Below, one piece after another: positions 1,702-23,953 of a stretch of 64,000 nucleotides of DNA; the stretch's first letter is position 1; each line of letters opens with the position of its first letter. The DNA is from Escherichia phage JY01. Location of the stretch: the sequence record OR995200.1. One strand, written 5' to 3'. Below the pieces are notes generated by a model that was given only the letters and a program-made list of their open reading frames with translations, ran no database searches and was not told the DNA's origin. Both the position numbers and the translations under genes were made by a program.

Positions 1702-3384
1702 TTAAACCATTACAGTAAATCGACCAACTTTCTTCATTTGAAGATGCTGACCGTATGCTTGCGGGTCATGGTCTCTATGCGAAATAACAAAAACATTAGT
1801 ATTTTTTAAACTATCTAAAATAGTTGAAATAGCTTTTACACCTTCAACGTCGGTCGCTGAATCAAAAACTTCATCAAGAATTAGTGTGTTTATTTTAACG
1901 CCTGAAACTTTTTCAGCAATATCACGCCAAGTAAATAAAAGAGCAATATCAATTCGCGCTTTTTCACCTTGACTGAATGAAGCATAACTAAAATCTTCAC
2001 GACCACGTGATTTAATTGTCTCATTAAATTCTTCATCTAATGTAAACACATAATCCGCTTCCATTATTTTAAGATAATGGTTAATCTGCTTATTAAATAA
2101 TGGAATGTACTTTTTAATAATAGCACCTTTAATACCAGAATCTTTGAGCATATCAGTCAAAATTCCTCGGTGGTATTTTTCCATTACTAAATTAGTTTTT
2201 GTCTTAACAATTTTATCAAGTTCTTCTTGAAGCAGTGCTATTTCATCAGCATGGTCAATAAACTCAGAAGATGCTTTTTCTATAGCCGCTTTAACCTTTT
2301 TAGCTTTATCTACTGCTGCGATCAGAGATTGCTTTTTATTGCGAATATCATTTGCCAACGACTGCTGGGTTTTAATATTATCTCGGTATTCATCAACAAG
2401 AACTTTTAAATTATCACGATGTGTTGAAAGCTGTTCAAACGAATGCGTACATTCAGAAACTTTATCTTTAATTTTAGAAACAACTTTATCACCTGAACTT
2501 AATTGTGACAAGCAGGTTGGGCATAATCCACCTTCGTGATACATATTAATGACTTTATTATACGAGTCAATTTTTGATTTAATTAAAACTGCTTCTTGAC
2601 CGATTTTATTAAATGCATCAGTCGGGTCTTCATCTAAAACAATATTAACTAATCTTTCATTAGCTTCTTCTATTTCCGATTTTAGCGTTCTAGCTTCTTT
2701 TGCCAAATCATCATACATATTTTGAAGACGAGTAAGGTTGTCACCCGTTAATTTTTTCTGGCGTTCAACGTTATCATTATATATTTTAATTTGTTGGATA
2801 ATACTATCTTTTTTAACATCAAGCACTTGGTTTTGTGAATTTAATTCACGTATTAGTGCTTTATTAAGCTTATCCATTTCAGCTAATGTTCCTACCTCAA
2901 GCAGGTCTTCCACAAGCTTTCTTCGCGCAGGGGTCGACAAACCCATGAAAGGGGTATACCCTGCTGTACCAAGGACAACAATCTGCTTGAAACTGGCATA
3001 TGACATTCCGATAAGCTGTTCAAATTCTGCTTGGAAATCTTTACTGCTGGCAGATTCATTAAGACGTGTACCGTTAACGGTGATTTCGAAAACGTTTGGT
3101 TTTTGTCCTCTTTTGATATAGTACTTTTTCTCATCATATTCCATCCACAGTTCAACTAAAAGTTCTTTCTTATTTGTGCTGTTTATTAATTGACCTTTCT
3201 TTACATCACGAAATGGCTTGCCAAAAAGCCCAAATGTGATGGCTTCTAACATAGTAGACTTACCACCGCCATTTCGTCCAGTAATAAGAGTTTTTTGAAC
3301 CTTATCTAATTGAATGCCAATAGGATTTCCACCTACTGACATTATATTTTGATACCTAACTCGGTTTAGTTTAAAATTCTTCAC
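1702..3384 (-). CDS. 46: Recombination endonuclease subunit gp46 (Rad50/SbcC-like ATPase)
   Basis: 560-aa ORF with N-terminal Walker A GRNGGGKST, long coiled-coil middle, C-terminal signature/Walker B region (LILDEVFD). Confidence 0.92.
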   Translation of the reverse strand: MKNFKLNRVRYQNIMSVGGNPIGIQLDKVQKTLITGRNGGGKSTMLEAITFGLFGKPFRDVKKGQLINSTNKKELLVELWMEYDEKKYYIKRGQKPNVFEITVNGTRLNESASSKDFQAEFEQLIGMSYASFKQIVVLGTAGYTPFMGLSTPARRKLVEDLLEVGTLAEMDKLNKALIRELNSQNQVLDVKKDSIIQQIKIYNDNVERQKKLTGDNLTRLQNMYDDLAKEARTLKSEIEEANERLVNIVLDEDPTDAFNKIGQEAVLIKSKIDSYNKVINMYHEGGLCPTCLSQLSSGDKVVSKIKDKVSECTHSFEQLSTHRDNLKVLVDEYRDNIKTQQSLANDIRNKKQSLIAAVDKAKKVKAAIEKASSEFIDHADEIALLQEELDKIVKTKTNLVMEKYHRGILTDMLKDSGIKGAIIKKYIPLFNKQINHYLKIMEADYVFTLDEEFNETIKSRGREDFSYASFSQGEKARIDIALLFTWRDIAEKVSGVKINTLILDEVFDSATDVEGVKAISTILDSLKNTNVFVISHRDHDPQAYGQHLQMKKVGRFTVMV

Positions 3385-5006: not shown

Positions 5007-5024
5007 TAAAGGGCCGAAGCCCTT
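5007..5024 (-). other. UUCG-tetraloop hairpin at the a-gt 3' end
   Basis: Minus strand AAAGGGC-UUCG-GCCCUUU overlapping the a-gt stop codon. Confidence 0.55.
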
Positions 5025-6226
5025 TATTTTGTAATAATGTCAAACTGTTCTTTAAAACAGAAGCTTGAATCTTGATGCTGATACAAAAATTCATAAGCTT
5101 TTTCACGTTCGCGGTCATAAAGAGCTCGGTCAGATGACAGTTCTTTAATACGTTCAAATGTTGATTCCATATCATTTTCATCAAACCAAATGATACCGCT
5201 ATCATGCGAGGTCAAAGGAGTATTATCAACACGGAATTTTAAATTTTCGCCAGTAGATTTCCAAAATACCGGAATTGTTCCACATGCACCAAGCTCGAGA
5301 TGAGTATATTCTAAAGAACGTTGTAGATATTTTTTATCCAACTTACTCAACTGATAACCAAAACCGGATTTACTCATACGTTCAAGCATTTCGCTATTTA
5401 CATAACGGTCAAGAATTTGCGTTGGCAAATTAGGAGCAATTTTAATTTGGTCTACTTGATGAAGACGATAATACTCGTATGGAATTCCTTTTTCTTTAAT
5501 AGGAATGAACGCTGGAGAACGTTCCAGACCTTCCATAATAGTACTTAGTCCTGCAGGTTTAAGATGTTTTTCATGAAAATCAAACATCTGATAAAAACCT
5601 TTCCATGTAGTCGTACGACCAATCCAACGGTTAACATTCATGTTAACTTCAGAAACATCTTTCCAGTAGGTTGACCGAACCTTCGCAATATCCATAGGAG
5701 GCTGAAAGTTATATACTGTCGGTGCTTCTTCAATATCATCAAACAGAGAAACAGTTTCTGGATACCATTCTTTCATCAGAACTTTATTAAAATCGCCATT
5801 ATCAGAATGGCTAAAAATAACATCAGCTCGACGAACAGTTTCTTCTAATCCCAAATTTCGACGCAAAGAAAGAGAAGAATGGTCATGCTGATAAACTACA
5901 ACACGAACAGAAGGTTTAATGTTATCAATAATTTTTTTATAGTTATTAATAGTGTCTTCTTCAACCGAAGTAGCAGGAACTGAATTGATAATTAGAATAT
6001 CACAATCATTTACCAGCTTAAGTGTTTTATCGTATTCTTTTGCCAATAAAACCGGAATTGAAAATGATTTATAATCATGCGCACAATTACGAGTAAATGA
6101 TTTATCTTTAGCATAAACCAAAGTTACTTCATGACCATTTTTAATAAACCAATCACGTTGCTCAAGAGAAAATTTAGTTACACCACAACCTTCAAGACCT
6201 CGAGCCATAAAAATACATACTTTCAT
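5024..6226 (-). CDS. a-gt: DNA alpha-glucosyltransferase
   Basis: 400-aa ORF, sequence recognised as T4 alpha-gt (…CIFMARGLEGCGVTKFSLEQRDWF…). Confidence 0.85.
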   Translation of the reverse strand: MKVCIFMARGLEGCGVTKFSLEQRDWFIKNGHEVTLVYAKDKSFTRNCAHDYKSFSIPVLLAKEYDKTLKLVNDCDILIINSVPATSVEEDTINNYKKIIDNIKPSVRVVVYQHDHSSLSLRRNLGLEETVRRADVIFSHSDNGDFNKVLMKEWYPETVSLFDDIEEAPTVYNFQPPMDIAKVRSTYWKDVSEVNMNVNRWIGRTTTWKGFYQMFDFHEKHLKPAGLSTIMEGLERSPAFIPIKEKGIPYEYYRLHQVDQIKIAPNLPTQILDRYVNSEMLERMSKSGFGYQLSKLDKKYLQRSLEYTHLELGACGTIPVFWKSTGENLKFRVDNTPLTSHDSGIIWFDENDMESTFERIKELSSDRALYDREREKAYEFLYQHQDSSFCFKEQFDIITK

Positions 6227-14396: not shown

Positions 14397-14575
14397 TTAG
14401 AAATAGACTTTTCACCATTAGAATAATAAACTTCGAGTTTAGCACGATTATTTTTAATTTGAATAACCTTGGCTGTCATCAAAGTTCCATACCCATAATA
14501 AACTGCAACTTCATCACCTACATATACCGCGCTTCCGCGGTAATCATGAATATAGTCAGTTCCTTCGAGCATCAT
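14360..14575 (-). CDS. Hypothetical protein
   Basis: 71-aa ORF; overlaps nrdC stop by 4 nt. Confidence 0.45.
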   Translation of the reverse strand: MMLEGTDYIHDYRGSAVYVGDEVAVYYGYGTLMTAKVIQIKNNRAKLEVYYSNGEKSISKWKYGDCMVKLG

Positions 14576-14835
14576 TTAAAATATTCTCGCAGTTGGTCAA
14601 ATCCACCAATATGACTTCCATCAGGAGCAAATACCTGAGGCATTGTCAAGCCGATTTGAGTATCACGACCTAGTTTAGTCAGAAGCTCAGCGATTTTCTC
14701 ATCATCAAAAACACCTTTTTCCGGCATAATGTTGATAAATTCAAACGGCTGTTTCTTCACAGTCAAAAGACGTTTTGCATTATCGCAATACACGCATTTA
14801 TGAATGTTGCTATCATAACCATATACTTTAAACAT
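14572..14835 (-). CDS. nrdC: Thioredoxin/glutaredoxin NrdC
   Basis: 87-aa ORF with CVYC active site, recognised as T4 thioredoxin. Confidence 0.85.
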   Translation of the reverse strand: MFKVYGYDSNIHKCVYCDNAKRLLTVKKQPFEFINIMPEKGVFDDEKIAELLTKLGRDTQIGLTMPQVFAPDGSHIGGFDQLREYFK

Positions 14836-14836
14836 A

Positions 14837-15079
14837 TTATTCCTTAATTCCTAGTACTTGTTTAAAAGTCTCGTCGTAATCAAGACTTTGGCCCGTTTGT
14901 TCTTTATGTTTGTATATAATATCACTTACTTCTGATAGCATATTTTTATATGAACGAGTTAAAGCAGATTTAAGCACGCTGTATCTATCAGGAAATTTAC
15001 CGTGTTCATTATAATAAGCTATTGCTAATTCACGGACTGCCTTTTCAGCAGCCTCCATATATTCTTTACGCTTGGTCAT
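14837..15079 (-). CDS. Hypothetical protein
   Basis: 80-aa ORF, co-oriented. Confidence 0.5.
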
Positions 15080-15081
15080 TT

Positions 15082-15471
15082 TTAATCCAAAATATTATTA
15101 GGCATTGGTTGAACACTCACAAGTTCTTTAAAGAACTCAGTAGAGTCAGGCAATTTAACCATTTCCGGAGCATGCTTACTGAATTTATGTTTACATTGAC
15201 GGCATTTATATTCAAGCTCTGGTTTACGCCAGTTAATCAACTGAACTTGTTCAGTACCGCATTCAGGGCAATTAGGAACGTTTTTAGAAGCTCTTTCACG
15301 TCGTTCAACCATAGCCATAATAGCATCCCATGCTGGAGGTTTAAAATCTAAATCGTCGCAGCCGTGAATCTTTCCACGCATTTCCATATCATCTTCCTCA
15401 CCAGCCATAATAATTTTAATTAAACTGGAATTACTTGAAGCTGCAATGTCTTCTAATAAACGCTTTTTCAT
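15082..15471 (-). CDS. Hypothetical protein with putative zinc ribbon
   Basis: 129-aa ORF with CPECG…CRQC pairs. Confidence 0.5.
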
Positions 15472-16397
15472 TTCAATACCTCAATAGCATTACGTAAACC
15501 ATTTGCTTTTGCATTAAGAGCTTTTAACAATTTGGTGTGTTCTGCAATTTGGGCTTCAACTTCAATCAAACGGGCATTGAGATATTCACGTTCTTCACTC
15601 AGATTATCAACCTTTTCTACTTTAGGCTCTTTTACAACTGTCTTATATGTATTAGGGTTCTTCAGTTTAATTAGAATGCGTGAACTGTATAACATTGAAC
15701 CATTATCTTCGGTTTCGTCATACATTTCCACTACGTCCATAATTTTTAACATCATGCGGAGTTTATAAGACAACGAACGAATAGTTTTGTTGTGCTTATT
15801 AATTTCTTTAGCTGTCATGGTGCCAAGATTACGTGAGTAATAATAAGGAACCTGGATATTAATTAATACTGATGAACCACCTGGCTTGTGTGTTACTTCA
15901 TCAGCAATAACCCAGTCCTTAACATGAACTGTATTTGTACGGTCATCGCCCGCGGTAAATAGTTTGCGAGCATGCTTAAAAAGCATATTCACTTGGTCAT
16001 TGAATTGACAAGCAAATTTATCAGCAAATTTAGTTTCAGGAATGGTAGAAAACCAATCAGCCAAATGAGTCTTTTTAACATCATTAACAATAGTAAATTC
16101 AACCAAATCGGTTATAGATGTCTCAGATTTAATGAAGCTTGGCTTCATAAAGTTTTTAATGTTCTCATGAGCTACAGTAGAAGATAACATACGAGAACGT
16201 TTAAACCATTCAAGCAAATTTCCTAACGAATGAGAATAAGCATTCTGAGTATCTTTACAGATATGATTTTCCTGCCCAACATATTGAAGAAAATCACGAA
16301 GAATATTATTAACTACTGCTCTGTGCCCTATCTGATAATTACGATGTTTAGTAATAAGACTGTCAAAATAATCAATATAATGTTTACGAGTTTTCAT
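15468..16397 (-). CDS. Hypothetical protein with C-terminal coiled coil
   Basis: 309-aa ORF; heptad-like C-terminus (…[33 protein letters not shown]). Confidence 0.6.
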   Translation of the reverse strand: MKTRKHYIDYFDSLITKHRNYQIGHRAVVNNILRDFLQYVGQENHICKDTQNAYSHSLGNLLEWFKRSRMLSSTVAHENIKNFMKPSFIKSETSITDLVEFTIVNDVKKTHLADWFSTIPETKFADKFACQFNDQVNMLFKHARKLFTAGDDRTNTVHVKDWVIADEVTHKPGGSSVLINIQVPYYYSRNLGTMTAKEINKHNKTIRSLSYKLRMMLKIMDVVEMYDETEDNGSMLYSSRILIKLKNPNTYKTVVKEPKVEKVDNLSEEREYLNARLIEVEAQIAEHTKLLKALNAKANGLRNAIEVLK

Positions 16398-16449
16398 ATT
16401 CTTCTCACTTGGTTAATGATTTATGCTCCAAGCCATCCTTGGCTTTAAA

Positions 16450-17451
16450 TTACTTAATTAACTGTAAAGCTTGTTCAAGACGATCTAGGCGATTAACAGA
16501 TTCTTCCCAAATCCTTTTAGCCTGTTCATATTCTTTTTGCGCTTTATTAGAAATTTCTAGAACTTCTTTATAAGCTTTTTCCAGTGCAATAACTTCTGGA
16601 CGAATTTCTACCGGTTCAGGTGAATCGTCAAGATTATCCATTAGTTCCTCAAGGGTAGTTTCTTCTTTAGGAGTATTCACAATTTCCTCACATTTTTGTT
16701 GGTAAATTTCTTTATCAGTCGGTGAGTACGCACACTTTACTTCACGAAGGCTAATTATAATTTTATATCCTTCCCAACCGCATATATTCTTAAAAGGATA
16801 AGTATGAATATTTTCTACTGTTTCCATACAAAGTAATGCGGTCTCTAATTGACGAGTTATAGTGCTAGCAATTGAGAAAAATTTATTAATGTTCTTTTGG
16901 TTAGTTTCTGGTGTAAAAAATCCATAATTCACAAAAATAGCTACTTTATTTTTATCAAGCTCATATTCTTTTACGATAATCATATCAGAAGCTAAAGGAT
17001 GAATTTGACGATAATCACCATAACATAATTTAGAAGCTGATTTTAAAATTTGTCCTTTAAAAAGTCTGAAATTACTAATCCAACGACGAGTAAAAATATT
17101 CTCAGGGTCTTCTTTATTATTAAGATGATAAGAATTAACATCACCGAACCAATTATATCCTACTACATCTTTGGTTCGTTTAATTTCTTTCCCAAAATTA
17201 CCAAGAATATCCCGATTAACCAAATATGAAAGAAGACGAGACTCTTTAAAGGTTTTCTTGATAACATCTTTATCTACACGGCTAGAAATTTTACGAATTT
17301 CATGAATAAATTTAGTAGAAGAAACAATACTTGCATCAACACTATTGAGCCATTGATTGATAATAGAAAGAACGATATTTTGACCAAACATCGGTATAGC
17401 TTTATCATCAATAACGCTATTGAATGATTTGATATATTCGTTACGAGTCAT
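16450..17451 (-). CDS. Hypothetical protein with C-terminal coiled coil
   Basis: Track ORF trimmed to MTRNEYIKSF, which is preceded by GAGGAG; C-terminal coiled coil. Confidence 0.6.
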   Translation of the reverse strand: MTRNEYIKSFNSVIDDKAIPMFGQNIVLSIINQWLNSVDASIVSSTKFIHEIRKISSRVDKDVIKKTFKESRLLSYLVNRDILGNFGKEIKRTKDVVGYNWFGDVNSYHLNNKEDPENIFTRRWISNFRLFKGQILKSASKLCYGDYRQIHPLASDMIIVKEYELDKNKVAIFVNYGFFTPETNQKNINKFFSIASTITRQLETALLCMETVENIHTYPFKNICGWEGYKIIISLREVKCAYSPTDKEIYQQKCEEIVNTPKEETTLEELMDNLDDSPEPVEIRPEVIALEKAYKEVLEISNKAQKEYEQAKRIWEESVNRLDRLEQALQLIK

Positions 17452-17479
17452 AATAATCTCCTCAGTAGAAAGTAAGAAC

Positions 17480-17509
17480 ATTATACCACATCCTTGTGGC
17501 GAAGTAAAC
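17480..17509 (-). promoter_or_regulatory. Early promoter
   Basis: Minus strand: GTTTAC, 17 nt, tgtgGTATAAT; upstream of 16450..17451. Confidence 0.6.
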
Positions 17510-18513
17510 TAGTTCAGTGCATTTAGTGCGTTGTTCAGTTTAGAACGTTGCTTTGTCAGATTTTGAACTCTTGACTGCGCTTGTTCTAGCACCTTTTCAG
17601 CTTCTAGCATTTCATTGGTTGCTTTAACGAGTTCATCATCTACTGCTTTAAGAGACTTCTCAATCGCATCGGCGTGCCATTTTTCTACAGGTTTAAAATT
17701 TGAATTTTCAGTAGGAAGAAAACTCACTTTATTAAGTTTCCATGCATCTGTACTACTTGAACTGTACATCCAACATTTAGGATCGTTGGATGAGCAATTA
17801 GTTTGAGGTTCAGGTTTTTTCTCTTGCGTAACTTCGTCCTTTCTCAAAAAATCGTATTTAAATGAAACGATCATATCAAGTTCATATGTTGTCGTATCTA
17901 ACTTAAATCGTTCAAAACGAGGTAAAATCTTAGATTGAACAGCAGAAACAACATCCATATACTTAAATGCTTCTGTCAACTGTGATTTAAGGCATTCACA
18001 AATTGAAAGAGAATTTTTTGTATTAGGTTTAAAGCTAATTCGTGCAGTTCTGTTATTTTCTTTTAATGGTCTTACTTCCATCTGAAGAGTATAACCATCA
18101 AATTTCAGATTCTTTAAGTTAATGTCAGAGCCTTTTAATCGACTAGCTGTGGACAAAATTTGCTTTAATTGTCTACGGAACAGAGCAATAAATCTCCATT
18201 CAATACGATAATGATTTGGATTGAAAAATCCAGATGATAAATCGACCTTACTTTGACCAACGCCTTGAACAAATAGAGGATTTTTATAATCAATAGTTTT
18301 ACAGAAATCGGTGAGCTGTTCACGAGCAGTCATTTGTGTAATATACCCCGCTTTACTAAAATGACGTAACCATTCACTGCTATTCATATATTTAAAGTGA
18401 ATATCACGATTAACTTTATCAGGGTCTAAATTATTTTGGCACAAAAATGTCATAACATCACGAGTATAGCTGGCATTACGAACCATATCTTCAATTTGAG
18501 AACGAGTTTTCAT
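17509..18513 (-). CDS. Hypothetical protein with C-terminal coiled coil
   Basis: 334-aa ORF; N-terminus MKTRSQ resembles MKTRKH of the 309-aa neighbour. Confidence 0.6.
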   Translation of the reverse strand: MKTRSQIEDMVRNASYTRDVMTFLCQNNLDPDKVNRDIHFKYMNSSEWLRHFSKAGYITQMTAREQLTDFCKTIDYKNPLFVQGVGQSKVDLSSGFFNPNHYRIEWRFIALFRRQLKQILSTASRLKGSDINLKNLKFDGYTLQMEVRPLKENNRTARISFKPNTKNSLSICECLKSQLTEAFKYMDVVSAVQSKILPRFERFKLDTTTYELDMIVSFKYDFLRKDEVTQEKKPEPQTNCSSNDPKCWMYSSSSTDAWKLNKVSFLPTENSNFKPVEKWHADAIEKSLKAVDDELVKATNEMLEAEKVLEQAQSRVQNLTKQRSKLNNALNALN

Positions 18514-18521
18514 GGTGTTCC

Positions 18522-19445
18522 TTAAGATTTAAGTAAATCAACAATTTTAATTAATTTTTCACGCTCAGATTTAGCTTTACTACTCAATCCAGATAGTCTA
18601 AAAATTTCATCATCATATTGTTGAATAGAAATATTCAGCTCTTCAATCTGCTTATTAAAATAATCAATTTGTTCAGAATGTTTTTCGTTACTACGAACTG
18701 GTACAGGTTTTGTAGGCAATTTAGTTGAACTGGATTCATCCGGGCGATAAATTAAAATACAACTTGAACCAATTGGACATTTTGCACCAGATGAATATTC
18801 TAATGTTCCAGATTCTTTTAAAACTTCAAAAGCTAAACAGAGATGATGACCCATATTGACATAATCAGTAGAGCGAGCTCTGATGTAATAATCATCTCCA
18901 CGAGTACTAAATTTAAAGCATTTAAGGTCTTCTGTATTATTGGTCTTAAAAATCATTTGTTTATCTAGACCTTTAGCTAATCGAGCGCCTAATGCTAATA
19001 ATCGTCGTTGATTTTCCCACAAATCTGCAATCATTTGGTCAAATGATAATTTTGGCATTAGTCGACCATAAAGGTCATATCCTTTATTATAATTACGAAG
19101 AATTTCACTCGCATTAATACGAGACAATGCTCCAATTTTATTAAGGGCTTTCATGATGCGATTAGATAAACTCATTCCAGATCCGTTTGTTCGCTGTAAA
19201 TGTTTTTCTAATCCAAATCCAATATCAACTTTAAATTTATCTAAAATTTCAGCATGAACATCTCTGTCAATAACATTCAAATCCAAAGTTGGGTTAAATC
19301 TATGAAAAAATTTATCTGGCTCTCCACGACGAAGTACAGTCCATTCATTCAATTTTTTATTAACTAAAGATTTAATTACTGTATTGACATTATTAATTAC
19401 TACTGACATATTTTCCTCACTCAATTTCAATTTTACTAAATACAC
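18522..19445 (-). CDS. Hypothetical protein with C-terminal coiled coil (start uncertain)
   Basis: 307-aa ORF; alternative start at MSVVINN. Confidence 0.55.
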   Translation of the reverse strand: MYLVKLKLSEENMSVVINNVNTVIKSLVNKKLNEWTVLRRGEPDKFFHRFNPTLDLNVIDRDVHAEILDKFKVDIGFGLEKHLQRTNGSGMSLSNRIMKALNKIGALSRINASEILRNYNKGYDLYGRLMPKLSFDQMIADLWENQRRLLALGARLAKGLDKQMIFKTNNTEDLKCFKFSTRGDDYYIRARSTDYVNMGHHLCLAFEVLKESGTLEYSSGAKCPIGSSCILIYRPDESSSTKLPTKPVPVRSNEKHSEQIDYFNKQIEELNISIQQYDDEIFRLSGLSSKAKSEREKLIKIVDLLKS

Positions 19446-19824
19446 AGAATATGATGGAAAAGACTATATAAGCACCGCATACAGATTGAACTAATACCAT
19501 TCCAAAGAACCAAACGATATTATCAAACAATGTCTGTTTTACGTCGAAAGGACGTAAACTTACAGTAATATTATCACCTTTTTCTATTGAAGAATACATC
19601 TCTGGGGAAATATATTCACTAAATCTATAACCGTCTTTGAGTTCATATACGGCAATAAACGATAAACTAGACCCCTTTCCTTGAGTTCCTGTAATGGTAT
19701 TAACTACAGTAACATCATAATCTTTATAATGCATATAATCATTAATAGCATAATAACCATATGCAATTACTATACATAAACAACATATCAATAAATTCAA
19801 TCTTTTAATTATCAACTGTTTCAT
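19417..19824 (-). CDS. Hypothetical membrane protein
   Basis: 135-aa ORF with N- and C-terminal hydrophobic segments. Confidence 0.5.
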   Translation of the reverse strand: MKQLIIKRLNLLICCLCIVIAYGYYAINDYMHYKDYDVTVVNTITGTQGKGSSLSFIAVYELKDGYRFSEYISPEMYSSIEKGDNITVSLRPFDVKQTLFDNIVWFFGMVLVQSVCGAYIVFSIIFCVFSKIEIE

Positions 19825-19879
19825 AATAATCTCAATTAAAAGGGCTTAGAACCATTATACCATCCTTGGTATAAAGCGG

Positions 19880-20407
19880 TTATGCGAGTACCGTCTTTAA
19901 CCGTTCTTCAAATTTCCGAAGAGTGTTCTGGCGTTCAGCTCTTTGCTTTTTGTAAGTTTCAATACGCTCTGAAATGAGAGTGTATCGTTCATTTACTGAT
20001 TCTTTCATAAAATCAGGAATTTCACGAGAAGCTTTAATCTCATCAAATTTATCAATAACAGCTTGCTCTTCAGCAATTAAGTTATCATACATTAAAATAT
20101 CTTTCTTGATGAACTCAATATCTTCTTGAGTTACACGAGATAATTTAGATGCTTTATCCTTTTTGTACTGTTCGTTAGTATCACGAGACCAGTGTAATGT
20201 ACGATTTTTATTCGTATTTTTGTAAATTTCTACAATACCAATTTCATCAATAATAACGATCCAATTCCAACGGGATTTGTAAATTTGTCCTCCATCAACA
20301 GTGATTTCACCTCCGATTGAGATGTCGTTAAAGAACTTGCTTTGTGCTTCAGATTTAAATTTACCATCGTTGTAATTTACCAAGTTGAAAATATCTTTAG
20401 CGTTCAT
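19880..20407 (-). CDS. Hypothetical protein with C-terminal coiled coil
   Basis: Track ORF trimmed to MNAKDIF; the annotated first 20 codons are a read-through of the promoter/5'-UTR module. Confidence 0.55.
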   Translation of the reverse strand: MNAKDIFNLVNYNDGKFKSEAQSKFFNDISIGGEITVDGGQIYKSRWNWIVIIDEIGIVEIYKNTNKNRTLHWSRDTNEQYKKDKASKLSRVTQEDIEFIKKDILMYDNLIAEEQAVIDKFDEIKASREIPDFMKESVNERYTLISERIETYKKQRAERQNTLRKFEERLKTVLA

Positions 20408-20433
20408 TTTCTGTTCCTCCGTAGTTGATAGTT

Positions 20434-20465
20434 GTATAGTACCACAGAGGAACAGTCTTGTAAAC
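20434..20465 (-). promoter_or_regulatory. Early promoter with conserved 5'-UTR module
   Basis: Minus strand: GTTTAC, 17 nt, tgtgGTACTATAC, then AACTATCAACTAC GGAGG ATG. Confidence 0.6.
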
Positions 20466-20467
20466 AA

Positions 20468-20782
20468 CTAAAAGAAACTTCTTTCACAATTTTTTCCACT
20501 GAACCAAGCGCTCACTGCTTTCTTAGTCTCAGGAGCAGTGTTATCCATAAACCATTCAAAGGCAGCCTTTTTATGATTCTGGAGGGCTTCTCGGGCTTTA
20601 ATCTGCTCACGGTCTATTAACACTAACATATGAGCCTTTCTTGTCACCAAGGGCTTCTTATGATTCTTGGAGTATTCCCAGTCATTTGTCCAACGCATTG
20701 TCGTTGCGAACTGAAATACTGCTTCTTTAATTTTAGTTTCGTAAATTTCACGAGCCTTTGAGTATAACATCATTACCTCCAT
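20468..20782 (-). CDS. Hypothetical protein
   Basis: 104-aa ORF. Confidence 0.5.
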   Translation of the reverse strand: MEVMMLYSKAREIYETKIKEAVFQFATTMRWTNDWEYSKNHKKPLVTRKAHMLVLIDREQIKAREALQNHKKAAFEWFMDNTAPETKKAVSAWFSGKNCERSFF

Positions 20783-20871
20783 TTACCAGTTTAATTCTAG
20801 TCATCTTTTTGATGGCAGTCCATATAATCTATTTCTGAACTGCCTTTTTGTCATAGAAGGCCTCTTATGAA

Positions 20872-21840
20872 TTATTTCAGAAGAGTAACCTCAGCAATTT
20901 CTTCCCAACCGTTTTTGTCGGTCATAATAAAGTCAGCAAGATAAAGAGCAGTACGCAGTGAAACATTGCGTAAACGATTAACATTGACTTTCATCCATGA
21001 TAATGCTTTATAAGTTTCTTCATCAGAAAGACCGCGCTTTTGCATCATGTCAGTTGAAAGAATAACATCTTCAACCCTGACCATAATTTCTTCATTAGTG
21101 TGAACACCCAAATCCAAATAAACTGAGCGGGACACTAATGCTTGTAAATGTGGAGCAAGTTTAGTACCACGGTCTAATTCGCGGTCAATGTCAACGTTTG
21201 TGATAAAAACAATCGTTCCTTTAAATTCAAACTCACGCTCAATGCCTTTTTCTTCTAAGTAAGAAGATGCAGTGCTCCAGCAGACTTTACGGGTCTCTCC
21301 AGTGTCCAGAGCGGCTTTTAGAAGATTAAGAATATCCATATCAGAGAAAACATCCACATCATCAATCAAAAGGACAGAATTCTCTTCACGATTATTCCAA
21401 AGCTGCTCATAAAGACCGATACCGGAGATTTTACCGTTAATGCTTTTATATTCAATGTATCCAATATCATTTGCTTTATTTAAAGCTTTATCTAAAGAAT
21501 ACGTTTTACCAATACCTGCTGCACCAGAGATAATTAATGAACGAATGTTTCCGTTAATAATACCATTCGTCATCATTCCCATAACATTAAATCTTTTATT
21601 AATGCGGGTTTTCATATCTTCATACGATTCTTTAACTTCTTCAACTTTTACACCATCATATGAAATGTCTGATTTGTAAACCCAAACACCGCGACGTTTA
21701 CCGTCAATTTCAACAAAAACTTTACCATCTCCTTGTGCATCTACCGGAGCATTATCTGGGAACCATTCGCCTAAGAGCTCAAAAGTTCCAGAGATTTCTT
21801 TACCGAAGTAGATACCCTTATTGATAGTTACAGTTTTCAT
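20872..21840 (-). CDS. AAA-type P-loop ATPase
   Basis: Walker A GAAGIGKT and Walker B LLIDDVD; true start is the second ATG after GGAG. Confidence 0.7.
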   Translation of the reverse strand: MKTVTINKGIYFGKEISGTFELLGEWFPDNAPVDAQGDGKVFVEIDGKRRGVWVYKSDISYDGVKVEEVKESYEDMKTRINKRFNVMGMMTNGIINGNIRSLIISGAAGIGKTYSLDKALNKANDIGYIEYKSINGKISGIGLYEQLWNNREENSVLLIDDVDVFSDMDILNLLKAALDTGETRKVCWSTASSYLEEKGIEREFEFKGTIVFITNVDIDRELDRGTKLAPHLQALVSRSVYLDLGVHTNEEIMVRVEDVILSTDMMQKRGLSDEETYKALSWMKVNVNRLRNVSLRTALYLADFIMTDKNGWEEIAEVTLLK

Positions 21841-21876
21841 TTTATTCTCCAAATCTGTATCAGTAGTTGATAGTTG

Positions 21877-21907
21877 TATAGTACCATAAAGCTTTATGAT
21901 TGTAAAC
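21877..21907 (-). promoter_or_regulatory. Early promoter with conserved 5'-UTR module
   Basis: Minus strand: GTTTAC, 17 nt, ttatgGTACTATAC AACTATCAACTACTGA; upstream of the AAA ATPase gene. Confidence 0.6.
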
Positions 21908-21929
21908 CGTTTTGTGAAAAATTTTTGAA

Positions 21930-21955
21930 ATAAAAAAGGGAGCCCGAAGGCTCCC
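21930..21955 (-). terminator. Rho-independent terminator after the nucleotidyltransferase gene
   Basis: Minus strand GGGAGCC-UUCG-GGCUCCC followed by UUUUUUA. Confidence 0.65.
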
Positions 21956-21957
21956 TA

Positions 21958-22971
21958 TCATTTATAATAACTTCGGTGGTTTTCAAGATAGACCTTCTCA
22001 AGGAAGTCATCCCAGAAACTCATGTCTACTGTTTTAGGCATACCGTTCTTAGAAGCTTCAGTAGATGCTGCTTCTACTTGATCGACCACATCTTCTAAAA
22101 ACTCTTGAACCGTTTTAAATGGATGCTTACCCAACTTCACGTCGAGAATAAATGGAGCGTCTTGAAGTGGATAAATCAAGTCGCCAGTTTTGTAAATTTC
22201 CAATAGTTGAAGTCCACCACGACAGGCATGACTCAGAGCTTTCCAGTCAATGCCTTCATTGGCTTCGGCCTTACGAGCACGTTCACCATATTCAGCATCT
22301 AATTTGTTCAGTGACTGCTTAAGCTCAATAAGAGAAAGCGTTGTCTGATATTTACGACCCAATACAGTGTAGAACGTTTGTGGACCTGTTTTCTCATGAT
22401 TATGGAATACCCATTCACAGAACTCGTTTTCTGGAAGACGATGCTTAATATCTTCAATTTTAGTGCGACGTTGTCCTTGTGTTCCATCTTCTCGGTAGAC
22501 ATTCCGTTGATCAGGAATTTGATTAACTACTTTCAATACATCACGTAATGCAGCCAAACGAGAACCCTTGACACCGTATTTAGAAGCTTGCTTGCGGACA
22601 TATCCTAAATAGGATTTCATGTTAGTCGTATAAAAACGAGAACGGTTGTCTTGAATAAACTTCCACACATCAGGCAAATCGGATTTAACCACTAGTTCAG
22701 GTGGAGTGTGAAGCATATCCAATGCTACAGTTTCACCATCTGCTGCTAATTTAAAGAAATATTTAAGACTGTATAGTTCATGGTCAATATCATCTTTAGT
22801 GTTTTTAGATGATGTGTTGTTAGTGTTTTTACTCATATGCTCTTTAACATTTCCGATAAGAATATCGCGAGCACGAGGAACAAAGATTTCTTTAAAATCT
22901 ACATCAGATTCTGGAGTAGAAGTTCCATAAAGATGACTACCAAAATAGCTTTTCATTACTGTTTTCATCAT
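21958..22971 (-). CDS. Putative nucleotidyltransferase-fold protein
   Basis: N-terminal motif FGSHLYGTSTPESDVD fits the GS…D.D signature of polymerase-beta-like nucleotidyltransferases. Confidence 0.55.
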   Translation of the reverse strand: MMKTVMKSYFGSHLYGTSTPESDVDFKEIFVPRARDILIGNVKEHMSKNTNNTSSKNTKDDIDHELYSLKYFFKLAADGETVALDMLHTPPELVVKSDLPDVWKFIQDNRSRFYTTNMKSYLGYVRKQASKYGVKGSRLAALRDVLKVVNQIPDQRNVYREDGTQGQRRTKIEDIKHRLPENEFCEWVFHNHEKTGPQTFYTVLGRKYQTTLSLIELKQSLNKLDAEYGERARKAEANEGIDWKALSHACRGGLQLLEIYKTGDLIYPLQDAPFILDVKLGKHPFKTVQEFLEDVVDQVEAASTEASKNGMPKTVDMSFWDDFLEKVYLENHRSYYK

Positions 22972-23429
22972 TCAGCCTTATATTCAATAACAGGACATAC
23001 TTTAGCTTTACGGGCTTTTAAAAATTCGACGATAATAGATTTCTTGGGTTGAATAGGAGGTAAACCTTTATACGCCCTATCAATATTTTCTACATGTAAA
23101 GCATAATCCTTTTTCCATTTATAATCTTTATATTTTTCATGCAGTTGTGCAGGAATAACAAATGAACCAATAATAAGTAAAACAAGCAAAATGGCAAGTA
23201 TAAATGCTGATGGAATAAGAGTCCATAAACTACCAAAAATAAGCCATTTCTGCATGATTTCTGCACAGATAATAGTTAGACCTGCGAGTATAGTACATCC
23301 GAAAAAAGAAACGAAAAATGTAGGAATAACAACAGACCAAAAATACGCGCATAGTGTCTTAGGTCGTTGCCATTCATCGTTAAACAATTTGAATAATTTA
23401 TAGTGCCAAGAGTTTTCATTAATAATCAT
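22968..23429 (-). CDS. Hypothetical membrane protein
   Basis: 153-aa ORF with 3-4 predicted TM segments. Confidence 0.5.
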   Translation of the reverse strand: MIINENSWHYKLFKLFNDEWQRPKTLCAYFWSVVIPTFFVSFFGCTILAGLTIICAEIMQKWLIFGSLWTLIPSAFILAILLVLLIIGSFVIPAQLHEKYKDYKWKKDYALHVENIDRAYKGLPPIQPKKSIIVEFLKARKAKVCPVIEYKAE

Positions 23430-23431
23430 AA

Positions 23432-23953
23432 TTATCCTTTCATTGAAGGCGTAACGGTTGTTAAATACTTAATCATAGCTTCAGCTTCTGATTTTGATAA
23501 TGAAATTTCTTCATTGTTTTGACGAATAGAAATAAAATCCGGATGACGGTCACCACCAGCTTTTAAAACACACATATAAGTATCGACTTCGCCTTCAATA
23601 TTTGAAATGATTGAAGCAGTTCCGCATGAATGTGGTTTTTGATAAATCAATACAGCTTTTCTTCCACCGTTTGACTGTTCATAGGCTTTTAATACATCAA
23701 GCAAATCAGTTCTTTTATCAATAGCTAAAATGTTATTTTCATCTTCAATGTTAAATCCTTCGGATACTTCATAAAGTGTTACCCATAAATCACCGATGTC
23801 AATAACAGCATTTACTTTTCCACGACTTTCAAGAGTATGACAAATTTTCTTGATTTCGTCATAACTCATTTTAATAATATCATCTCCTTGACTAAGGAAG
23901 ATGTCATTTTTAAATTCAACACGAATTAAACCGCTTCCACTTGAAATAAACAT
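23432..23953 (-). CDS. Hypothetical protein, paralogue of 23960..24514
   Basis: 173-aa ORF; C-terminus SIRQ…SKSEAEAMIKYLTTVTPSM parallels the neighbour's SIRQ…TKDEAIALKTYLDSVIPTM. Confidence 0.5.
   Translation of the reverse strand: MFISSGSGLIRVEFKNDIFLSQGDDIIKMSYDEIKKICHTLESRGKVNAVIDIGDLWVTLYEVSEGFNIEDENNILAIDKRTDLLDVLKAYEQSNGGRKAVLIYQKPHSCGTASIISNIEGEVDTYMCVLKAGGDRHPDFISIRQNNEEISLSKSEAEAMIKYLTTVTPSMKG

Follow-up and report, generated by a model that had tools for sequence, protein, structure and literature searches.

NrdC.3, NrdC.4, NrdC.5 and NrdC.6 of T4-like phages: diverged paralogs of one layout with a predicted coiled-coil tail and a possible common role in counter-defence

NrdC.5 of phage T4 belongs to the small set of proteins known to counteract abortive infection of the SIR2 type. 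A T4 clone carrying deletions failed on Escherichia coli ECOR17 owing to the SIR2-domain defence protein Dsr1, and a plasmid expressing nrdC.5 alone was enough for this clone to plate again on cells with Dsr1 (Srikant et al., eLife 2022, PMC9391042). According to a 2026 preprint, phage major capsid proteins are recognised by the sensor of Dsr1, a tetratricopeptide-repeat (TPR) domain that also occurs in Avs7 and further defence proteins (PMC12803255). The nrdC block is, according to the literature, expressed early, and nrdC.1-6 have been lost spontaneously from T4 with viability kept (PMC9825161). Here, we analysed the corresponding genes in a 64,000-nucleotide (nt) stretch of Escherichia phage JY01 (OR995200.1), which as a whole is called the window and to which coordinates refer unless another locus is named. 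Our results show that nrdC.3, nrdC.4, nrdC.5, and nrdC.6 belong to one family restricted to T4-like (Straboviridae) phages, in which they are old and strongly diverged paralogs, and that each protein ends in a heptad-patterned tail. The genes were already known as T4 hypothetical open reading frames (ORFs), each with a database family. Any of nrdC.3, nrdC.4, nrdC.5, nrdC.6, or nrdC.8 is named in only seven papers of the searchable literature, and in those consulted we found no description of NrdC.3-6 as one family, nor of the tail.

By its sequence, the window is a Tequatrovirus (T4-like) genome; positions 15000-21000 share 96-97% DNA identity (96.8% for the locus) with many Tequatrovirus genomes, and the ORFs were named nrdC.3, nrdC.4, nrdC.5, nrdC.6, and nrdC.8 based on synteny and the annotation of phages NR1 and T4. 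All five are minus-strand genes located in the interval from nrdC (glutaredoxin) to nrdC.10/nrdC.11. A preliminary description of this DNA had reported five ORFs of 309, 333, 334, 307, and 175 amino acids (aa) in a row; the coordinates hold, as do all lengths but that of 307 aa, which counts from an upstream GTG, as opposed to 295 aa from the ATG of nrdC.6 that is conserved across other genera (MSVVIN or MSQAIN in the alignment of starts). The row is not uninterrupted either, nrdC.7 being interposed between nrdC.6 and nrdC.8; that is, the ORFs with coiled tails are five of six consecutive genes. The two MKTR starts reported in the same description are those of NrdC.3 and NrdC.5, and NrdC.4 begins with MTR. 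NrdC.5 is here 90.6% identical to T4 NrdC.5, and the NrdC.3 allele of the window shares only ~61% identity with T4 NrdC.3.

The N-terminal domains had initially been described as unrelated-looking, which turned out to be wrong for NrdC.3, NrdC.4, NrdC.5, and NrdC.6, the heads of which are homologous and collinear. The suggestion of a paralogous family made at the same time is upheld for these four proteins by profiles, bridging proteins, and architecture, but is not supported for NrdC.8, for which profile comparison remained at chance. Pairwise BLASTP among the five proteins linked only NrdC.3 and NrdC.4 (27% identity over 160 aa, E 2.6e-5), both of which belong to phrog_1435. At the profile level, hhalign joined the NrdC.3+4 profile to NrdC.5 collinearly with 85-86% probability (E 5e-6; alignments from four genera). 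Profile hidden Markov models (HMMs) of the heads, built with one clade left out at a time, recovered the left-out protein as the best non-training ORF of the window in every case (NrdC.4, 1.6e-11; NrdC.5, 5.2e-10; NrdC.3, 1.2e-3; NrdC.6, 9.7e-4). A MAFFT alignment revealed common motifs in one order in all four proteins, i.e., an M(K)TR start, F.K...[LI]S...A.E.L.[ND][FY].K, [IL]L..[GA][AS][RK]L..G.D, and M[DE][VT]V, with the tail coming last. At the DNA level, no repeats between the paralogs were found except for the 12-nt MKTR start codons and, therefore, the duplications must be old.

Additional links came from searching more widely. Word-indexed protein searches yielded close relatives only, which left the profiles and the AlphaFold2 (AF2) inputs shallow. 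An HMMER search of 1.84 billion representative proteins with a profile that combined the four families retrieved only 37 proteins at E <=1e-3, none of them coiled-coil noise; about 20 are full length (285-355 aa), and all traceable matches came from ~170 kb T4-like genomes. Several proteins bridge the families: P0234 matches both NrdC.4 and NrdC.5, P0236 matches the NrdC.6 head (1.3e-6) and the NrdC.4 tail (9.6e-5), and P0223 matches the NrdC.5 tail and the NrdC.6 head. The Pfam model of NrdC.5, DUF7235, covers the full length of the tail in five proteins of the NrdC.6 clade (E 4e-7 to 3e-4); in a sixth, P0217, its match lies in the head (1e-4). NrdC.5 itself clears the gathering cut-off of this model (30 bits) with 369.8 bits over residues 1-334; no match was found in NrdC.3, NrdC.4, NrdC.6, or NrdC.8 at E up to 0.1, and relatives of NrdC.6 reach 20.7-30.2 bits, mostly via the tail. 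Therefore, the link of NrdC.3, NrdC.4, and NrdC.6 to DUF7235 is one at the superfamily level, not one of membership. Public databases keep the families apart as well (phrog_1435, DUF7235/phrog_2351, phrog_2257/PF26899, and phrog_2274/PF26901, with PF26897 also among the NrdC.3/.4/.6 families). Weak Pfam matches to PHL, DUF4164, and DUF3238 were dismissed as sub-threshold, and PADLOC and NCBIfam provided sub-threshold matches only (coiled-coil regions of BrxC and PgrA, and the XerC/XerD N-terminal domain for NrdC.3).

Models and alignments show one predicted layout for the family, which for NrdC.5 and NrdC.6 was taken from AF2 models and for NrdC.3 and NrdC.4 was read from the alignments. It begins with a basic, all-helical N-terminal domain of ~130-150 residues (isoelectric point [pI] 9.4-10.0 and net charge +6 to +10 in all four proteins), continues with a small strand-strand-helix-strand-strand domain that evolves fastest, and ends, after a disordered linker, in an amphipathic heptad-patterned helix of 45-55 residues, the tails being near neutral to slightly acidic. 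The two models (mean predicted local distance difference test [pLDDT] of 74.8 for NrdC.6 and 64.6 for NrdC.5) have one order of elements, that is, helical N-terminal domain, beta hairpin, helix, beta hairpin, disordered linker, and long terminal helix. When searched with Foldseek against BFVD, both models found the same full-length targets (A0A2Z4QAR2, A0A0K1LMI4, and A0A7G3KGN9), which are uncharacterised ~330-aa proteins of Klebsiella phage Mineola, Citrobacter phage Merlin, and Enterobacter phage IME523; the Merlin protein is also among the matches of the joint profile.

The tails were assessed with a COILS-type scorer (28-residue window), for which we relied on calibration on the window and not on nominal probabilities. 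Each of the five proteins shows exactly one high-scoring segment, located at the C-terminus, with scores of 1.57-1.88 (Table 1), and none of NrdC.2, NrdC.7, NrdC.9, NrdC.10, and NrdC.11 has a high-scoring segment in the same scan. A score of at least 1.45 is attained anywhere in the protein by 11 of 100 gene-like ORFs of the window and within the last 30 residues by six, five of which are NrdC.3, NrdC.4, NrdC.5, NrdC.6, and NrdC.8; five of six positives falling inside six consecutive genes is expected in 3.9e-5 of random placements. A matrix-free test provided the same picture: 75-92% of the a and d positions are hydrophobic vs. 17-33% of the other positions in all five tails, and shuffles that preserve composition attain the observed heptad pattern in 0 to 112 of 5000 trials per tail (0/5000 for NrdC.5 and 22/5000 for NrdC.8). 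In the AF2 models, the NrdC.5 tail is a single uninterrupted helix at residues 278-333 (pLDDT 71-90) and the NrdC.6 tail consists of helices 242-274 and 277-294, in both cases after a disordered linker. Sequence searches against the Protein Data Bank (PDB) returned coiled coils only, at E above 0.02; the matches to the tail part of the family profile, weak as they are, were all classical coiled coils (Spc42, PKG zipper, P22 gp26, and NEMO), and those to the helical part of NrdC.8 were likewise coiled coils. Hence, the heptad-rich C-terminal segment that the preliminary description had seen in all five proteins is borne out by the scores, the shuffles, and, for NrdC.5 and NrdC.6, the models, and the coiled-coil prediction that it had called for gave high rather than low values for every tail. 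All five tails show the heptad periodicity beyond composition expected of a canonical coiled coil; a winding of helices around each other is a prediction from this pattern. Elsewhere in the window, the sixth ORF with a high C-terminal score is one of 400 aa at 5024-6226, which by gene order is probably the alpha-glucosyltransferase, and the internal coiled coil of a 546-aa ORF at 1702-3342 is in keeping with gp46 (Rad50-like).

The last two heptads of 36 family members follow the pattern Q(g) R(a) x K(c) L(d) x x A(g) [LI](a) x x L(d) K(e), followed by 0-2 residues, with column counts over the 36 members of 33 and 31 for L, 27 for A, 24 for K, 22 for R, and 20 for K. NrdC.5 and NrdC.6 fit this terminal motif (QRxKLxxA[LI]xxLK) well, and NrdC.3 and NrdC.4 retain L..A[IL]..[LI]K without the QR. 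Between genera, the tails of orthologs are 26-81% identical and usually the best conserved region, e.g., 61-69% vs. 29-46% elsewhere in the protein for NrdC.6, 77% vs. 33-68% for NrdC.3, and 77-81% vs. 63-68% for NrdC.8, and the NrdC.4 tail is almost invariant; the least conserved part between orthologs is the strand-helix-strand middle domain. The tails of paralogs within one genome are only 9-23% identical. Conservation among orthologs combined with divergence among paralogs is as expected of coiled coils that pair with themselves and not with each other, although other readings are compatible with it as well. The core has mostly I or L at a, mostly L at d, and one polar Arg at an a position. 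Such a composition favours a parallel dimer according to coiled-coil design rules and, therefore, a parallel dimer is what we infer. The conservation of the tail between orthologs and its family-wide motif make it plausible that it serves as a shared oligomerisation or targeting module, as the preliminary description had suggested.

NrdC.8 is a separate family (PF26901), and its helical C-terminal region is not demonstrably related to NrdC.3-6. It is beta-rich in its N-terminal part, helical from about residue 95, and well conserved (at least 67% identical across four genera). Comparison with the 36-sequence family profile by hhalign was at chance level (P = 0.11 over 22 columns), the family tail HMM gave NrdC.8 4.2 bits (E 1.6), which is no better than its score for the gp46 coiled coil, and the search with the joint NrdC.3-6 profile retrieved no NrdC.8-type protein.

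The family is highly variable across phages. Its copy number is four in Tequatrovirus, three in Mosigvirus, Dhakavirus, and Gaprivervirus, and one in Jiaodavirus and Acinetobacter phage Acj9, and no member is present at the loci from Aeromonas phage 44RR and one Slopekvirus. Among 653 phage records, NrdC.3 alleles fall into three discrete classes of at least 90% identity (357 records), ~75-78%, and ~60% (the T4 type), differing most in the middle domain (48%) and the linker (33%), with the genes neighbouring nrdC.3 being 90-99% identical to T4 and the genomes otherwise very similar. Natural rearrangements are also evident. Manna_094 of Salmonella phage Manna (345 aa; locus L005, 6215-7252) fuses residues 1 to ~270 of NrdC.6, i.e., the head and the first tail helix, to residues 251-333 of NrdC.4 at a DEI/EEI junction, with nrdC.5 and most of nrdC.4 deleted, and the metagenomic protein P0057 joins NrdC.5(145-266) to the C-terminal half of NrdC.3. 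In phage SP18, the nrdC.5 homolog is split into two ORFs (L006, 5038-5942); in ACG-C40, most of nrdC.5, nrdC.4, and nrdC.3 is gone through a deletion that begins early in nrdC.5 and ends in the nrdC.3 tail (L015, 4305-4716); and Sf25_gp220 (P0105, 378 aa) is an over-long NrdC.6. NrdC.6 of the T4 reference (AF158101; L002, 5103-5930) has 275 aa and the C-terminus QIEELIFLFNNMMMKFSDYLD, which looks like a frameshift with loss of the coiled-coil tail that the window, NR1, and other genera retain. Two phages without NrdC.3-6 have genes for the salvage of nicotinamide adenine dinucleotide (NAD) at the equivalent locus: Aeromonas phage 44RR2.8t carries an adenylyltransferase/Nudix gene for nicotinamide mononucleotide (NMN) and a nicotinamide phosphoribosyltransferase gene near nrdC.11 (L013, 7013-8071 and 12769-14223), and in Klebsiella phage phiKp_20 only the adenylyltransferase/Nudix gene is annotated in the stretch (L014, 6099-7160). 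The pair of genes resembles the published answer to defences that deplete NAD, Dsr1 included, by NAD reconstitution. That nrdC.3-6 are dispensable, variable in copy number, divergent in alleles, and prone to fusion is as expected of counter-defence genes.

Hence, we favor, with moderate confidence, the hypothesis that NrdC.3-6 are ancient paralogs of one layout that make up a modular counter-defence family whose tail self-associates. Under this hypothesis, the proteins would be counter-defence (host-range) factors made early in infection. Their variable parts, the head and the middle domain, would recognise different host targets; a flexible linker would follow, and through the conserved tail each protein would associate with itself, a parallel dimer being the likeliest form, with the drift of paralog tails keeping the paralogs from pairing with one another. 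Several points weigh against it. The demonstration of a counter-defence role is limited to NrdC.5 and comes from a single complementation experiment in T4 (PMC9391042), the literature that mentions these genes reports no function for NrdC.3, NrdC.4, or NrdC.6, for which such a role is our inference, and the basic N-terminal domains would fit nucleic-acid binding as well. Self-association of the tails is a prediction, the AF2 models being of monomers, and the NrdC.5 model is mediocre, only one of five models being acceptable. Direct sequence support for the kinship of NrdC.6 is weak by hhalign against the other families (P 0.009-0.08), and small tail HMMs with one clade left out did not link the clades significantly. 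Because of this last result, the homology of the tails rests on their position, on the homologous heads, and on Pfam matches via intermediates; in other words, the alignment of C-termini proposed in the preliminary description succeeded where DUF7235 matches tails of the NrdC.6 clade, not where small tail models were used. When offsets anchored at the C-terminus were scored, most NrdC.3-6 pairs fell into the register that homology would predict (offset 0 or 1), with z values of only 2-3.

A bolder version of the favored hypothesis, which we regard as possible though rather unlikely, is that the head and middle domain of each of NrdC.3-6 neutralise a different host immune protein and that inhibition depends on the conserved C-terminal helix, the part by which all four would work. 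Plausible targets would be effectors that have the capsid-sensing TPR sensor of Dsr1 and Avs7 in common, and the helix might act either by giving the inhibitor an oligomeric state that matches that of the defence protein or as a ligand that docks into the repeat sensor. If this were true, NrdC.3, NrdC.4, and NrdC.6 would be three undiscovered anti-defence proteins, and the terminal motif would mark a whole class of inhibitors in T4-like phages.

Alternatively, the tail might be a docking or targeting module through which all paralogs bind one common partner, a host machine or a phage protein, with the heads bringing different cargo or targets. The family-wide motif does include conserved positions that do not belong to the a/d core (Q at g, K at c, A at g, and K at e), natural fusions retain a tail, and TPR domains commonly bind helical or C-terminal peptides. 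The repeat-type sensor of Dsr1 and Avs7-type defence proteins would be one candidate partner under this alternative, as a TPR-repeat domain common to several defence families (PMC12803255). However, the paralog tails share only 9-23% identity beyond the short terminal motif, which is poor for a common binding interface, and the arrangement of a/d residues corresponds to a coiled coil that associates with itself; we therefore consider docking unlikely. A different arrangement, in which the paralogs, perhaps with NrdC.8, assemble via their tails into one hetero-oligomeric, multi-headed complex, would be in line with the adjacency and common orientation of the genes, with the co-occurrence of multi-copy arrays and nrdC.8 in four genera, and with heptad tails of similar length throughout, and yet seems quite improbable given that copy number varies (4, 3, 2, 1), that phages with a single member (Mineola and Acj9) or with several members lost (Manna and ACG-C40) are viable, that nrdC.5 alone sufficed in the plasmid experiment with the T4 deletion clone on Dsr1 cells (PMC9391042), and that the NrdC.6 tail is apparently frameshifted in the T4 reference strain.

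It is also conceivable that the proteins are dimeric nucleic-acid-binding factors, i.e., early regulators or DNA/RNA-directed proteins with a basic head that binds and a zipper that dimerises, the anti-Dsr1 effect being indirect. The charge of the four N-terminal domains would agree with this, as would the resemblance of NrdC.3 residues 30-86 to the XerC/XerD recombinase N-terminal domain (sub-threshold, E 0.003-0.03), but that match is confined to one paralog, no DNA-binding domain scores above threshold in Pfam, NCBIfam, or PDB, and extreme divergence, allelic classes, and dispensability would be unusual for regulators of the phage programme, and we give this explanation little chance. Finally, the tails could be convergent or a by-product of composition (an A+T-rich genome, with the predictor over-calling) in five proteins without common ancestry. 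The window has 31-39% G+C, the tail-only HMMs failed as described above, and NrdC.8 has no detectable homology to the other proteins; on the other hand, ORFs of the same composition rarely carry a C-terminal coil and those that do are clustered, shuffled tails rarely attain the observed heptad pattern, and the homology of the heads refutes such an origin for NrdC.3-6. This last possibility is thus highly improbable and survives only for NrdC.8. The hypothesis of a modular counter-defence family with self-associating tails is, on balance, the one that we retain.

Table 1. Genes of the nrdC.3-nrdC.8 region, their C-terminal heptad segments, and promoter-like sites in the window
Feature	Position	Strand	Details
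nrdC.3	15468..16397	-	309 aa; phrog_1435 at E 9e-116; closest paralog nrdC.4
NrdC.3 tail	15471..15623	-	residues 259-309; COILS-type score 1.72
nrdC.4	16450..17451	-	333 aa; phrog_1435 at E 6e-169
NrdC.4 tail	16453..16596	-	residues 286-333; terminus RLDRLEQALQLIK; COILS-type score 1.68
promoter-like site	17480..17508	-	TTTACT, 17 nt, TATAAT, with TG; nrdC.5-nrdC.4 gap; consensus match only
nrdC.5	17509..18513	-	334 aa; Pfam DUF7235 (PF23882), 369.8 bits; phrog_2351
NrdC.5 tail	17512..17682	-	residues 278-334, one long predicted helix; terminus TKQRSKLNNALNALN; COILS-type score 1.88 (scored 279-334)
nrdC.6	18522..19409	-	295 aa; phrog_2257; PF26899 (source database); divergent family member
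NrdC.6 tail	18525..18686	-	residues 242-295, predicted helix, kink at SGL, helix; terminus EREKLIKIVDLLKS; COILS-type score 1.57 (scored 238-273)
nrdC.7	19417..19824	-	135 aa; hydrophobic N- and C-terminal stretches; without coiled coil; outside the family
nrdC.8	19880..20407	-	175 aa; phrog_2274; PF26901
NrdC.8 C-terminal heptad segment	19883..20002	-	residues 136-175; terminus RKFEERLKTVLA; COILS-type score 1.57
promoter-like site	20436..20464	-	TTTACA, 17 nt, TACTAT, with TG; just upstream of nrdC.8; consensus match only

Three intergenic TG-extended promoter-like sites, including the two listed in Table 1, are compatible with early expression but constitute no evidence for it, and a promoter scan of the region did not return more sites than shuffled sequence (39 vs. 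35.9). The site in the nrdC.5-nrdC.4 gap agrees with the 333-aa start of nrdC.4. No Rfam family was found in 14500-23500, and a strong bidirectional hairpin terminator lies between nrdC.10 and nrdC.11 (21937-21956). Directly downstream of nrdC.3, with the ends overlapping, is nrdC.2 (15082-15471; 129 aa here and 104 aa in T4), whose product has a CxxC...CxxC zinc-ribbon motif and sub-threshold Zn_ribbon matches. Small membrane proteins are interleaved with the family: here nrdC.7, which the T4 annotation gives as a predicted membrane protein, and elsewhere (Gaprivervirus and Dhakavirus; L003, 6793-7008; L007, 4827-5042; L008, 4856-5071) a 71-aa transmembrane ORF, unrelated-looking, between the nrdC.6 and nrdC.5 homologs. 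On the other side, NrdC.10 (20872-21852) has sub-threshold matches to AAA/STAND-type nucleoside triphosphatases, and NrdC.11 (21958-22971), which is conserved in ~1500 phage records, matches the RlaP nucleotidyltransferase family of RNA-repair operons at 42 bits.

It is important to note that nrdC.2-nrdC.11 are labelled "thioredoxin" in hundreds of GenBank records, and that nrdC.8 is taken for a nucleotide reductase in a paper of 2026 on DRT1. No thioredoxin or glutaredoxin match was found in the five proteins in Pfam or NCBIfam, no thioredoxin or reductase domain is detectable in them, and the architecture of the NrdC.5 and NrdC.6 models differs from the thioredoxin fold. The label, which apparently spread from the gene-name prefix nrdC of the neighbouring gene, is unsupported, and for these genes we consider it wrong.

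The results reported here place NrdC.5, previously an orphan, in a family with three adjacent architectural siblings and about 20 distant full-length relatives in T4-like phages. The siblings NrdC.3, NrdC.4, and NrdC.6 are prime candidates for further anti-defence functions, the most variable middle domain is likely the element of specificity, and the conserved tail offers a defined, deletable module. Further, the differences in copy number, the allele classes, and the natural fusions may help explain differences in host range among therapeutic T4-like phages.

How the family relates to described systems can be summarized as follows. Poxvirus ankyrin-repeat proteins with a C-terminal PRANC/F-box-like domain are likewise tandem paralogs with fast-evolving recognition domains and a short, conserved C-terminal module for a common activity. 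The likeness would be one of analogy, not homology, and the module of the NrdC proteins is a predicted coiled-coil helix. The dmd-tifA-adfA "anti-TA island" of T4 also consists of non-essential early genes that are variable and prone to deletion and amplification, and whose loss narrows the host range (PMC9391042); however, its genes encode unrelated small proteins, whereas NrdC.3-6 are four paralogs of one design with a common tail. The likeness to DSAD1 of phage SPbeta is in the way of working only: DSAD1 is reported to neutralise the SIR2 NADase DSR2, an abortive-infection protein, by binding its repeat-type sensor region, and its gene lies in an accessory region, as does the nrdC block (PMC10973363, PMC10981675). 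No sequence or fold relation between DSAD1 and NrdC.3-6 was seen, there being no BFVD or PDB match that points to DSAD1, and the targets differ as well, in that DSR2 reportedly senses the tail tube and Dsr1 the major capsid protein (PMC12803255 for Dsr1). Closest is NrdC.5 of T4 (PF23882), of which nrdC.5 of the window is the ortholog and NrdC.3, NrdC.4, and NrdC.6 are distant paralogs with its architecture, although they miss the DUF7235 model and belong to other database families. Rather than a new kind of system, what is new here are further members of, and a defined architecture for, the family of a known anti-defence protein.

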